From the NCBI GenBank assembly GCA_002269645.1, contig NIVC01002088.1:141631-205630 (forward strand): a DNA stretch of 64,000 nucleotides, given 5' to 3'. How positions within the stretch are numbered: the stretch's first letter is position 1; the number at the start of each line of letters is the position of its first letter. A program made the translations under genes and the position numbers. Below the pieces are notes generated by a model. The model ran no database searches. It was not told where the DNA came from and worked only from the letters and a program-made list of their open reading frames with translations. This document shows positions 51,401-64,000 of this stretch, piece by piece. This DNA is from Macrostomum lignano (lineage: Eukaryota).

Positions 51401-51574
51401 AAAAATCTCGAAGGTCATATTTTAGGCTCGCTTTAAAGCCAGTTTTCGAAGATTTTCGAAGAAACGATGCTTCGATTTCTTCAACCAAACTGACGCTGCC
51501 AACCCCGCAGCCGGGAGGTCGGGCAGAACAGGCTGCACTCCACCAGCCAGCGCGTCGAGGAGGACTACATGCAA
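45433..51574 (+). CDS. Unknown low-complexity protein. Large first exon 45433-47863 (acidic 16-aa repeats, then an Arg/Ser-rich region), then exons approx. 49609-49747, 49783-49904, 50444-50790 and 51511-51574, where the Polinton begins
   Basis: An 852-codon ORF with a GTGAGT donor at 47864. Downstream GC-rich exons are phase-consistent except the 49747/49783 junction, which needs a 1-nt correction. No family recognised. Confidence 0.6.
45685..46190 (+). repeat. Coding 48-bp repeat (SEDNSKPQ[GD][GAR][SG]A[SF]ESV), about 10-11 copies
   Basis: Visible in both the DNA and the 852-aa translation. Confidence 0.95.
48025..48909. mobile_element. Non-autonomous hAT-type element (885 bp), intronic
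   Basis: TIRs CAGTGTTGGGCACC / GGTGCCCAACACTG, 8-bp TSD TTAATAAT (48017-48024 and 48910-48917), and many CGTTAA/TTAACG subterminal repeats in opposite orientation at the two ends. Confidence 0.9.
50963..51150 (+). mobile_element. tRNA-derived SINE, family B, copy 2 (intronic; may extend to about 51330)
   Basis: GCAGAGCAGCTCAGTGGCAAA A-box and GGTTCGATTCC B-box; body similar to 34510-34680. Confidence 0.7.
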
Positions 51575-52061
51575 GTAGTATAGAAAAAGACGCTTCTAGA
51601 CCCAGAGCACTTTTTTAATGACCGTTTTAAGGGTCTAGAGGGGGACACGGGGGGTAAATAAAAAAACACATCTAAACACCCTTAACACATCTAATCACCC
51701 ATAATCACCCCTGACAATAAAAATCACTTCCCAACACTTCCAAACACTCCCCAACACCCCCCTCGCGTCCCCCCTCTTAAGACCTTACAAACGGCCATTA
51801 AAATAAGGTCTGATCTAGAAGCGTCTTTTTCTATACTACTACTCTATAACCCCTTGCCCGCGCCGCAGGCGCGAAGGGTTGGAAAGAATAGAAGCTATTT
51901 ATAGTCAGCTCACCTACCCACCCAACATTCCATTTAGACCAGATTTTAGACCAAACAAAACTAGACTATCGTTTTGGTTTTCGTTTTCAAAAATTTGGTC
52001 TAAAATCTGGTCTAAATGGAATGCAGACAATCTTTTTCTGTTACTAAAAATAGAACAAAAA

Positions 52062-52460
52062 ATGACACACGTTACTCATTTGCAAAATCTGAATGAAATG
52101 CAGGTAGGAGACCCAGTTGAATACCGAGGTGAGGGGCTTTTTGATGTGGTTGGAACAGCAGCAAATTTTGTTAAAGACAATATGGGGCTTATAGGGCAAG
52201 CTGGCTCTGCAGCAGGCTCTATAACAAATGCTGTAAAAGGAGGAATTGAAGCAGCTAGAGCGGCAGAAGAACTAAAGAAATTGAGAGATTTTAACGACAC
52301 CCTCTCACAAATAAATGCAATAAAAGATTTAAAGCTGGCACAAGCCGCACAACCAACAGAAACCCCCACGAAAAGCGCACCAATAAGTAATAAAGATATT
52401 CAGGATTTTAATAAAATGTTAAATACTATTAAAGGTGGAAAAGGATTAAAGAAATTTTAA
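52062..52460 (+). CDS. Small Gly/Ala-rich Polinton protein (probable virion core or membrane-active precursor)
   Basis: ATG at 52062 in good context; GEGLF and GGKGL motifs similar to those in the neighbouring pX-like protein. Confidence 0.7.
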   Translation: MTHVTHLQNLNEMQVGDPVEYRGEGLFDVVGTAANFVKDNMGLIGQAGSAAGSITNAVKGGIEAARAAEELKKLRDFNDTLSQINAIKDLKLAQAAQPTETPTKSAPISNKDIQDFNKMLNTIKGGKGLKKF

Positions 52461-52470
52461 CAATATAAAA

Positions 52471-53456
52471 ATGGACACAGATAACGACCGCTTATATTTT
52501 ATAGGAGAAATTGTAGATACTTTAGATCTAGATGATAATAAACATAGCCACACAATGTTAAAAAGATTGGATCGATTAGGTAAAAAGTTTGACTACGACA
52601 TCGATACATTTAAACTCGCAGCAAAATATGCACAAGAAGGAAGGCCAATATCCTTTAAGAATCGCGGCAGAAATTATAGGTTGACAGACTCCGATGTGAA
52701 ATTTTTAATGGAGACTCACACTAAAAAGGACGGCGGATTACTACCCATTCTACCGCTTCTTTTAGGACTTGGCGCAGCTGGAGCAGTCGGTTTAGCCGGA
52801 AAAAGAATTCATGATAATGTAAAACAGCTAGGAGAGTTAAGAGCGAAACAGGGGGGAATCTTGCCCCTTGCAGCTTTGCTCCCAATAATTTTTGCAGGAA
52901 TTGGAGCAGCTGGAGGAGTTGCTGGCGGAGCAGCTGGAATTGCAAAAGCAGTAAATGACAAAAAAGCTGCGGACGAAAAAGCTAAAAGAGAGGCCGAATT
53001 TCAAAGACAGCAAATAACGCAGGACGCACAATTTAAACAGAAACTTATTGATACCATTAATAGTAGTTCAGCAACAGCAGAGCAAAAAAGAAATGCAGAA
53101 GCTAGGTTAGCAGCCGGAAAAGGTTTACTCTTGCAAGGAACAAATCACGGGAATGGTTTGGTACTAAAAGGAACAACCCAAGGAAGTGGAGTTGTCGCAG
53201 ATAAACTACATGAATTTGGCCAAACTTTAGAAAAAACGGGTGAGAAAGCTAAAGGATTTTTTGACAATATTGGATCCAATTTTAGACCGCTGTTCAGAAA
53301 ATTTTTAATAAATTAGGAAAAGATTTTAACATCATTGAAAAACACGACGGAAGCGGATTATATCTCGAAATGAGACCAAAAGCAGGTTCAGGAATTTTCT
53401 TAAATTCAAATGTTATGGGAAATGGATTGCTATTACCAAAAGCAGATCTCGAATAG
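52471..53456 (+). CDS. Adenovirus pX-like Polinton protein; the ORF reads 52471-53316 and extends to 53456 after two 1-nt corrections
   Basis: Two GG(L/I)LP + Gly/Ala hydrophobic segments, the GAAGIAKAVNDKKA motif and repeated GxGL motifs. Confidence 0.75.
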
Positions 53457-53539
53457 GCTCCTGGGGGAGGGTCTGGACACCAAAAACACAAAATTAAAAA
53501 ATCAATAATTCAAACATTATATAAATTTTATTCTATAAA

Positions 53540-61745: not shown

Positions 61746-62211
61746 CTATTTTATAGAGTCTAAAATCGTGCCATCGGCACGCATGCTTTGCATGATACCC
61801 CTAAAGTCTTCGGGTCTTTCCTTCGAGTTATTAATTTTATATAAAAAATATAACGCAGCCTGCCCGCAATAACTTTTATCAAATGTTTGAAACTGTTCGT
61901 GATGATCTCCACATAAACGATTTTTAGTATGATTAAATTTATCTTTTATTTCCTGTAACGGAGGAAGCGCGTATGAATCAAAAAATAAACAAGTTTTGGT
62001 TTTGAATAAACTGCTGACCAATGAACACCATTTTCTTTTGTTGTTTCAATATTAACAATGAAACATCCATATCTTGGTAAGTCTTTTATCTCATCCGCAT
62101 AACACATCTGAATGGTTTTATTTTTAACTGCCTCGCCCAATTTGTTAATTCGATATTGCTTGTTGTGTCCGTTCCATATCTTTGTTTAAAATCATCCCAC
62201 GTCATGGTCAT
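61746..62211 (-). CDS. Adenain-like cysteine protease (frameshifted)
   Basis: IVN..NGVHWSAV (His), FFDSY (Asp), QTFDKSYCG (Gln/Cys), spread over adjacent frames. Confidence 0.9.
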
Positions 62212-62393
62212 TTATGTTCCTGAAAAACTCTTGGTTTTAGTTAGTTTCGTAGGTGTGGGTTTTAACAATTCCTTTCTTATTTTATCAGCTTGTAACTGCC
62301 TTAATTTTGCTAGTTCTAGTTCGTAATTATCTTCAGCTTTTTTAACTTTTTCTGATTGTTTTTTTATTAAATTATTATTTTATTATTACCCAT
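62212..62393 (-). CDS. Small basic protein, about 60 aa (MGNNK..), needing one added A
   Basis: Open frame ..KKAEDNYELELAKLRQLQADKIRKELLK.. between the penton and protease genes. Confidence 0.45.
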
Positions 62394-62461
62394 TTTTACT
62401 ATAGGAAACGATCGTGCAAAGATCGACCTACCGATCGTACGAGTTCGAACCAAAGGTTCGA

Positions 62462-63243
62462 TCAAACCTGTTTTATCCGTAAAATTATTGTTATTGATTG
62501 CCCACCAAAACTTATTAATCTATCGCTTTCATCTACAATCCTAATATAAATTGATTGAACATTATATTGATTTAATGGGTAATATATTGGGGTTTGAGGT
62601 GATACAATCATTTTCTCTCCAATTGGAACAGCAAGAAATGGGATTGAATAAATAATTCCACGTTGAACCAAAACTCCGTTATCGTCTGTTATATAACCAC
62701 CGTTTGAAATGTCGGTTGTTATATTAATTGTATTTACTCCACCCTCTATATTTCCAACTGTATCACCGGTGCTTGATGTGGTAACTATTCGGGAATTAAA
62801 TCCAAGTATGGTTCTGAGTGAATTTGCAATTGTGAAATCAACCTGATATCCGGATCCTAGTGATAGTGTGAATCTGCCAGACGGTAAATCAACACCTATA
62901 ACAATTGCTCCTGCTACCAATCACCATTAGTTGTTAATTCTCCTTCTATATAAGCATTCAAATCAGTATAGCTATACGCTCCTGGTTAACGCTAAATGTT
63001 GTCCAATTGGCTCCGGAATCTTTAGAATATCTAAATTGATTATTTGTTGCATTAATTAATTGAGGCATGTTGAAAACCGAAATAGTATTAAACCTATTTG
63101 ATAACTTAGGCTTTGATCAAGTTGTAATGGATCGCGCAATTGAATCCGTTGCTCGCTGGTTGTCATTATAAACTGTAATGTTGTACTAAATTTGAATTAG
63201 TTCGATCTACCAATTGTTTTATAGTATTTAAATTTGTAGCCAT
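62462..63243 (-). CDS. Minor capsid (penton-like, single jelly-roll) protein; 5' part frameshifted
   Basis: FRYSKDSG..W..PGAYS..DLN, SLRTILGF, NTINITTDI..GY, IYS..VPIGEKMIVSP..IYYP, I.IRIVDESDRLISFGGQ.ITIIL. Confidence 0.85.
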
Positions 63244-63293
63244 TTTTATAGTGGGAATATTCTTCTTCCTCATCGTCTTCTTTTATAAGATTT

Positions 63294-64000
63294 TTAAGAT
63301 TCGATGTTTCTTTCTAACCTCGGATTGATATAAATATGTTTGTATTGGCTATCATCCCAAATTTTTTTACACATACTTTTAAATGGTTTTGCATCCAATC
63401 CGGGATTAAATCTCGCGTGATATTTTGTAAATCATAATTATCTAAATCAAACATTACACAACAACTTGCATTCTTTTTTATAATCGATTCTAATTCTCTA
63501 AAAGACTGTGTTAGATAAAAGCTCCGATTCCATCTCCTCTACCACTAACAAAAATTTCCTTTTGCAATTCTTGATCACCGTCATTAATACAATCATCAAA
63601 AATAATTAGTGTTTTATCATGTTTTGGAATTTGATCATAGGCTAATCGGGTTGATACTCTAACAGTTGGGGCTCGCGATCGGTGATGTTTTCTGGCTGTT
63701 GTGCCATTGTTTTACATAAATCCTCAATGTCTGCTAGATTAAATCGCGGTTCGTCATCATCCTCATATTGCTCATATGCTCTTAACATCTAAACAAGACA
63801 TCTTTTTTTAATTGTTTTTTAATCCATGTTTAAGAAATTCATAATATTTATTCTAGTTTATTAGTATAAATTATTAAATTATTATAGGTCTAACATTCCA
63901 TCTGTTGTTAATAAATCGTAAACAAAGTGTGTTTTTCCTTTTACCTGATCCTCCGATTACTAAACAAAGAAAAGGATCATTTGGAATATCTTATCGTGTT
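63294..64000 (-). CDS. A32/FtsK-like genome-packaging ATPase, 5'-partial and frameshifted
   Basis: DPFLCLVIGGSG(K)GKT Walker A, KTLIIFDDC Walker B, SGR..YLTQS..KKN motifs. Confidence 0.88.

Follow-up and report, generated by a model that had tools for sequence, protein, structure and literature searches.

The right end of a 64,000-nucleotide stretch of Macrostomum lignano DNA (assembly GCA_002269645.1, contig NIVC01002088.1, positions 141,631 to 205,630 of the forward strand; hereafter the window) carries, behind an AGTAGT end, a dense run of virus-like genes whose reading frames are repeatedly broken. The locus raises the question of what this element is, how much of it the window holds, and whether its broken frames reflect damage or artefact. 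A preliminary reading made from the letters of the DNA (the sequence-only reading) had proposed a complete-type Polinton/adintovirus, possibly intact and virion-forming, integrated in an invertebrate gene. We consider it likely that positions 51574-64000 belong to a single integrated Polinton (Maverick/adintovirus) copy, of which they form the left part, that its family is young, with about 10-40 near-identical copies, and that the breaks are assembly errors.

The assignment as a Polinton/adintovirus held, and is carried by homologues and fold matches of the protein-primed DNA polymerase (pPolB), by an ATPase, a protease and a penton, and by the end motif. Of 8000 candidates scored, 5545 are homologues of the middle pPolB piece (best identity 56-57%), and the homologues run colinearly across the three frames over which the gene is spread, with no intron-sized gap. 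The gene contains motifs that we take to be those of the exonuclease and the polymerase, as well as, at residues 213-218 and 323-327, Cys and His motifs that may belong to a vOTU; an N-terminal OTU-like domain is a mark of adintovirus PolB. It also carries an endonuclease VII-like insert, which its relatives have as well. In a fold search the top ranks were taken by MELD-virus, bidnavirus-like and adintovirus polymerases, with the bidnavirus-like enzymes, at 22-29% identity, among the top 11 matches. PF03175 gave no match at E 0.1 for the three pPolB pieces or for two intact relatives; some homologues do carry this domain. In a tree built from 63 of 137 sequences the polymerase groups, at support 1.0, with 15 unnamed sequences to which it is 48-57% identical, separate from named coral, crinoid and spider sequences. 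In the closest metagenomic locus (L023:714-4356, 55% over the middle pPolB piece), pPolB is likewise split between two frames near the C terminus.

We recognised the virion genes with profiles built, by alignment search, from related loci (22 viral and 80 metagenomic). The pieces of the protease, penton and packaging ATPase each lie in profile order; the members of the ATPase profile are Pox_A32, and the protease relatives match Peptidase_C5 near the cut-off. A low-confidence model of the penton (predicted local distance difference test score, pLDDT, 67) matched the folds of Sputnik V19, the mavirus minor capsid protein, adomavirus LO5 and a MELD penton at E 0.002-0.04. Searches against PDB sequences returned three matches only, to endonuclease VII (E 0.07), the adenovirus penton (E 0.075) and FtbO (E 0.09). 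The open reading frame (ORF) of the pX-like gene matched PF05829 at E 0.008, under the curated cut-off, and has 184 relatives, three of them at E<1e-30 and four full-length at 31-45% identity, the tail of the full-length relatives matching the window in another frame. Together with the fibre-like gene and orphan ORFs described below, the gene list of the sequence-only reading is thereby confirmed by homologues, profiles and folds.

The element shares with Polintons/Mavericks (Polintoviricetes) pPolB, the A32/FtsK ATPase, an adenain-like protease, a penton, intronless packing and a 5'-(AGT)2 end (PMC8097293, PMC4028283, PMC11161782; published work is cited here and below from partial texts), and an endonuclease insert in pPolB has been described for Polintons too (PMC11161782). 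It differs in that capsid, integrase, right terminal inverted repeat (TIR) and target-site duplication (TSD) were not seen, owing to the window limit. With adintoviruses (Starrett et al., PMC8502044) it shares the same core and a pX-like accessory gene, and the labels 'Fiber' and 'Lectin' occur in MELD viruses related to adintoviruses (PMC8502044). Unlike adintoviruses, it showed no PF03175 (pfam03175) match in its split pieces, no PLA2 domain (neither a Pfam match for the pX-like ORF nor a match in 51574-64000 to a PLA2 profile of its relatives) and no gasdermin or cupiennin match (Pfam, element ORFs). Since PF03175 and PLA2X, two marks of the Alpha set, were not found, and neither the Alpha nor the Beta set (the latter with GasderminX and cupiennin-like genes) was demonstrated, we file the element as neither, while the modelled pPolB fold matches would lean to the bidnavirus-related, Alpha-type class by the criterion of PMC8502044. 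On the features tested the element is a Polinton, a further member of a known and widespread group: Polintons with one polymerase class alone are reported from 17 of 23 invertebrate phyla (bioRxiv 2023.08.22.554363), so that a flatworm host is unsurprising. No description of a Macrostomum Polinton was found in the literature searched, whose scope did not include Kapitonov and Jurka 2006, Pritham 2007 and Repbase. The available supplement text of PMC8502044 contains no flatworm term; it also lacks common polymerase motifs, and its sequence files probably lay outside the search.

A full-core Polinton from metagenomic data (L066/L067) offers a more distant comparison. It has the same type of polymerase with an endonuclease insert and, in L066, a fold-back at its end (77-bp arms, 95-nt G-poor repeat loop), whereas pPolB identity is about 40%, the gene order is another one, the ends show no sequence likeness, and capsid-like, rve, ATPase, protease and penton-like ORFs each lie in a single frame. 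In the tree, the L066 pPolB lies 2.16 substitutions per site from that of the window.

The element starts, as the sequence-only reading had stated, with AGTAGT at 51574, directly after CATGCA (the last six nucleotides of the exon-like piece 51511-51573 and the left candidate TSD), and this start coincides with a step in GC content (0.56 in the 1 kb to the left, 0.385 in the 1 kb to the right, 0.28 within pPolB). AGTAGT is 5'-(AGT)2, the commonest Maverick end motif, the alternative being (AG)3 (PMC8097293). No further AGTAGT-type end occurs anywhere in the window.

Splice signals and open frames suggest that the element interrupts an exon of a host gene. Exon-like pieces lie at 49610-49748, 49826-49904, 50464-50791 and 51511-51573, the last being cut by the element; its 63 nt, which follow a YAG and lie downstream of the other three pieces, are free of stops in all three frames. 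The exon-like sequence fits the proposed integration into an invertebrate gene but does not confirm it, and neither a transcript of the interrupted gene nor a contig spanning the junction was found among the matches listed for four sequencing runs. A chimeric join made by the assembler, with the element not in this gene at all, would account for the missing contig, and no loose end at 51574 is among the matches listed either. We regard such a chimera as very unlikely: integration would put the join exactly where it is, at the AGTAGT terminus, whereas a random mis-join would not. Two side observations concern the same region. An 894-codon open frame at 45307-47991 (+), which carries acidic repeats of 16 aa and lacks a Pfam match, is possibly the first exon of the interrupted gene, and about 51030-51280, within the presumed intron that borders the element on the left, there is a dispersed repeat of high depth and with numerous loose ends.

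On the right, the element runs past the window end at 64000 and is interrupted inside the ATPase gene, so that the roughly 12.4 kb seen are its left part. Queries with tblastn against 51500-64000 returned no match to integrase (37 queries) or to the major capsid protein (16 queries) in this truncated element, nor is there a second TIR or a TSD in the window. The terms 'complete-type', 'intact' and 'virion-forming' are therefore not borne out by the window. These absences would also be expected of a family that has no major capsid protein or integrase, moves as a transposon alone or with help from another Polinton, and forms no particle. We hold this to be improbable, since the window cuts an element of a group whose members measure 13-25 kb, that element has retained its penton, protease, ATPase, pX-like and fibre genes, and in related loci capsid and rve genes lie beside the same set.

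To place the copy within its family we turned to sequencing runs. In 20 of 24 listed runs (eight studies, one organism), 0.74-0.77 of the sampled words of the window were present, and four runs from four studies were compared with the window as contigs. Element contigs were deeper than flank contigs by median factors of 39.8, 20.5, 9.7 and 10.7 (medians over 6, 6, 6 and 7 long element contigs among those listed, one diverged contig dropped, versus 2, 2, 1 and 1 flank contigs), a measure that is not a copy number, varies four-fold between runs and may be biased by the GC contrast. Element contigs about 10-40 times deeper than the flank in all four runs point to a young multi-copy family. Many records are only 90-95% alike, and older subfamilies thus exist too. 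The four-fold spread itself may reflect strain, GC bias or extrachromosomal copies. In an attempt at TIR length, summed depth was higher over the first 1.8 kb, yet the single deep contig there was no deeper than the pPolB contigs. None of the 24 runs is listed as RNA; the one that we presumed to be RNA covers the flank as well and is therefore uninformative on transcription.

The same contigs bear on the frame breaks. At least 15 frame changes fall in about 10 kb of element genes, concentrated in the last 1.6 kb of the window, versus a single one in the reading frames of the host and of Gypsy, which total about 11 kb. All 12 listed gaps between the window and the family contigs are of a single base, each in four of four runs, and 10 of them lie inside pPolB, protease, penton or ATPase; as the family contigs are deep, this indicates that the breaks are private to this assembled copy. 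No stop was found in any of the 62 core-gene segments aligned by tblastn (pPolB 28, ATPase 8, protease 14, penton 12), and the only one among seven pX segments lies in a segment that overhangs a frame break. The earlier view that the lesions are slips and not deep decay is borne out by these stop-free segments and single-base gaps. We think it somewhat more probable than the alternatives taken together that the breaks are assembly errors inside a long repeat.

The chief alternative is that the family is as described and this copy was truly broken, and is dead, through small deletions and insertions after it had inserted. The excess of frame changes over that in the neighbouring frames speaks for it, as does the fact that the window differs from the runs at several flank positions and may represent another haplotype. 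In decaying sequences, substitutions usually far outnumber gaps, and nonsense codons accumulate as well. A hand tally over the pieces listed, in which sites recur between runs, gave 50 other letters and 15 gaps in 25 element pieces and 27 other letters and no gaps in six flank pieces, and stretches of 240-600 nt match family contigs with 0-2 differences. Given these numbers and the stop-free core-gene segments, we judge true decay to be the less probable explanation, though one to be taken seriously.

Several observations weigh against our reading as a whole, in addition to the absence of capsid, integrase, right TIR and TSD from the window and of a junction-spanning contig among the matches listed. 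The breaks show no significant preference for homopolymers (six of 12 break places at runs of at least three, versus 33% background, p 0.17), which also suits true decay. Nearby frames are clean, with one frame change in a 4.1-kb Gypsy pol and none in a 2.7-kb ORF, so that any error is not assembly-wide. Contigs drop rare variants, and a truly mutated copy would therefore look identical in this comparison, which moreover contained 57 gap rows, 16 joints and 604 loose ends beyond those listed.

The sequence-only reading had not noted the high copy number, nor that the left terminus is predicted to fold back on itself and is followed by a second hairpin. The first 20 nt of the element recur once, inverted, at 51821-51840 (0 expected); the outer 27 bp pair perfectly (51574-51600 with 51814-51840), and the arms as a whole are 82% identical over 84 columns around a loop with 1% G. 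The 270-nt end folds at -57.8 kcal/mol (z -13.2, 0 of 200 shuffles), and the fold-back is deeply covered in all four runs. A joint at 51878-52031 that skips or replaces the second hairpin (Table 1) was present at high depth in all four runs, its short side having 20-21 letters; family ends may exist in two forms.

We compared this end with those of other elements. In related loci, a strong fold-back was found at one of 204 ends, that of L066 (z -14.2; 77-bp arms 92% identical, 95-nt loop containing 5% G), a count that speaks against our reading of the end, although few of these ends are true termini: just four of the 204 carry an end motif, so most are not such. Two loci, L016 and L035, both begin with GTAGTAGT (positions 1-8), two bases outside the integrated AGTAGT end, and may start at free linear genome ends prior to integrase trimming; L016 folds back weakly (z -3.4) and L035 has an internal hairpin alone. 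The internal arm of the window fold-back has one AGT unit more than the integrated end, and this extra unit, together with the GTAGTAGT starts, could weakly fit integrase trimming of a longer free end, given the triplet periodicity. No fold-back of the window type occurs at five ends of three viral records. Searching viral contigs for a 16-nt terminal motif gave 79 scattered matches, nearly all internal, which we took as chance. Near-perfect palindromes of 90-540 nt also lie near pPolB genes of related loci, at L015:4657-4840, L045:5516-6046, L063:467-630, L088:3336-3512 and L042:1-90, that of L015 starting with TACTACTATA and ending with TATAGTAGTA.

Terminal palindromes have precedents. In Halocafeteria virophages and polinton-like viruses a palindrome inside the TIR beside the TSD has been proposed as a replication hairpin (bioRxiv 2026.07.28.741278), and terminal palindromes are described for casposons also. 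The Halocafeteria palindromes are tight (52 nt in the example, gap limit 10) and belong mostly to elements lacking pPolB, whereas that of the window, in an animal pPolB element, is 270 nt long and has a loop of 100 nt. In the literature searched we found no animal Polinton described as having a long looped fold-back; the scope did not extend to Kapitonov and Jurka 2006, Pritham 2007, Repbase or the extended tables of bioRxiv 2023.08.22.554363, any of which may cover it.

It is tempting to speculate that a subset of pPolB Polintons, among them this young and perhaps still active flatworm family, ends in conserved arms of about 80 bp and a G-poor loop of about 100 nt, an architecture repeating the origin in inverted form and forming a mini-panhandle in which a single-stranded end alone regenerates a duplex origin and an integrase substrate and so replaces the genome-length TIR pairing of the standard Polinton model; we put this forward tentatively and think it less likely than not. 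Alternatively, the 270-nt fold-back could be a miniature element in its own right, bounded by TIRs of its own, or a functionless by-product of template switching. Its AGTAGT...ACTACT ends do resemble those of a whole element, its arm identity falls off inward, and accidental annealing has been offered as another source of terminal palindromes (bioRxiv 2026.07.28.741278). There is, however, no 6-bp duplication around it (CATGCA on the left, ACTCTA or CTATAA on the right), which argues against a separate miniature element, and the lack of another AGTAGT-type end in the window, the deep coverage in all four runs and the like arm and loop sizes, with a G-poor loop, in the distant L066 make either origin doubtful, about as much so as the mini-panhandle.

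For known Polintons, a linear genome is copied by the protein-primed pPolB and integrated by rve, and capsid, penton, ATPase and protease form the particle (PMC11161782, PMC4028283, PMC6431247); a panhandle origin has been described as well (PMC4046053). The element studied here likely works as other Polintons do; for it we infer the host genus, the missing genes, particle formation, the cause of the gaps and the role of the fold-back. Starting at the AGT-repeat ends by protein priming, pPolB would copy the linear genome, and an rve integrase, predicted beyond the window, would insert the element with a 6-bp duplication. The ATPase, penton, protease, pX-like core protein and lectin-tipped fibre, with a predicted major capsid protein, would build and aim the particle, the fibre lectin domains possibly binding glycans on the host surface. 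The pX-like protein may be cleaved by the protease at its GG motifs, which we presume to be protease sites. Finally, through the 270-nt fold-back a displaced single strand might regain a duplex origin on the spot, so that the two genome ends need not pair.

As invertebrates commonly carry Polintons, one further member is ordinary; the useful additions beyond the gene list are the young multi-copy family and the terminal fold-back. According to PMC8097293, free genomes and particles had not been observed for Mavericks, and a family that is young and has tens of near-identical copies, in what is probably a laboratory flatworm, would be a place to seek both. If conserved, the fold-back would provide a testable alternative to the model in which Polintons are excised and replicated through long-range pairing, and if the mini-panhandle is real, this family would make a local origin and the formation of animal Polinton particles observable.

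Table 1. Features of the element and its left flank (window coordinates)
Feature	Position	Strand	Remarks
Exon-like host sequence, probably cut by element	51511..51573	+	YAG acceptor ending 51510; stop-free; GC-rich
Left terminus: AGTAGT and fold-back	51574..51843	.	arms ~85 bp, 100-nt G-poor loop of short repeats
Second hairpin	51926..52023	.	30-bp perfect arms, 38-nt spacer
132-aa ORF, Gly/Ala-rich, GxGLF motif	52062..52460	+	ORF list
pX-like core-protein gene, two GG(L/I)LP motifs	52471..53450	+	frame change near 53300
pPolB	53540..57503	+	three frames; PF02945 E 8e-7 (endonuclease VII-like insert); homologues; fold search; tblastn
Orphan ORF, 119 aa	57477..57836	-	one weak PHROG match, function not known, E 0.005
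Orphan ORF, 110 aa	57852..58184	-	no family match (Pfam, NCBIfam, PHROG)
Orphan ORF, 170 aa, two CxxC pairs near N terminus	58211..58723	+	no meaningful family match (Pfam, NCBIfam, PHROG)
218-aa ORF, central hydrophobic stretch, common to other Polintons	58691..59347	-	profile from 5 related loci E 3e-4
Orphan ORF, 144 aa from first ATG (true start may be later)	59360..59794	-	ORF list
Fibre-like gene, four pieces	59691..61735	-	19-aa repeats, shaft motifs, two likely lectin domains
Adenain-like cysteine protease	61746..62211	-	three frames; profile E 5e-10, 1e-7, 0.03
Small basic ORF-like stretch, ~60 codons, broken near start	62208..62393	-	three-frame translation
Penton (minor capsid protein), at least 4 pieces	62462..63243	-	last piece: profile E 2e-26
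A32/FtsK-type packaging ATPase, at least 4 pieces	63297..64000	-	profile E 7e-7, 4e-6, 0.016, 0.03; cut by window end

Among the remaining genes (Table 1), the fibre-like gene is the best characterised. Its four pieces likely form one gene. A 57-nt repeat present 6.1 times encodes six 19-residue repeats; there is a PHROG tail fibre match (E 1e-5), and one region matches a profile of relatives (E 1e-11), one of which carries an F5/8 lectin domain. The last piece resembles L-type (legume-type) lectins (atlas 0.95, 181 of 256 features), and from these resemblances the gene likely carries both F5/8-type and legume-type lectin domains. No longer relative of the lectin piece was found among 478 candidates, which is weak evidence, and it had no PDB sequence match either. 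The accessory set had been called distinctive; it is less so than that, since fibre-, lectin- and pX-like genes are described for the virus group (PMC8502044) and occur in related loci.

The 132-aa ORF is likely a small core protein or a membrane-active virion protein; it had no match in Pfam, NCBIfam or PHROG, and none from five look-alike proteins of related loci. The 170-aa orphan is likely to bind zinc through its CxxC pairs. For the 218-aa ORF, unnamed look-alikes in the atlas (0.89-0.90) are weak. NCBIfam returned nothing meaningful, and weak Pfam, PHROG or NCBIfam matches to Med28, NMT, CRAL_TRIO, Csx28 and lysin were rejected as under cut-off. A single-sequence locus search in viral contigs yielded three stretches that fit the pattern, none of them a relative.

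Elsewhere in the window, a polycystin (PKD channel) gene with long exons was recognised with Pfam at 653-5400 (+); a polycystin exon had two homologues among 1220 candidates, both Macrostomum lignano proteins at 46% identity. It is from these paralogues that Macrostomum is the likely host genus. A Gypsy-type retrotransposon at 16248-20349 (+) encodes gag-pol with protease, reverse transcriptase, RNase H and integrase, with one frame change before the integrase. A satellite of 100 copies of a 40-bp unit (97% identity) occupies 28051-32062, with several further minisatellites close by.

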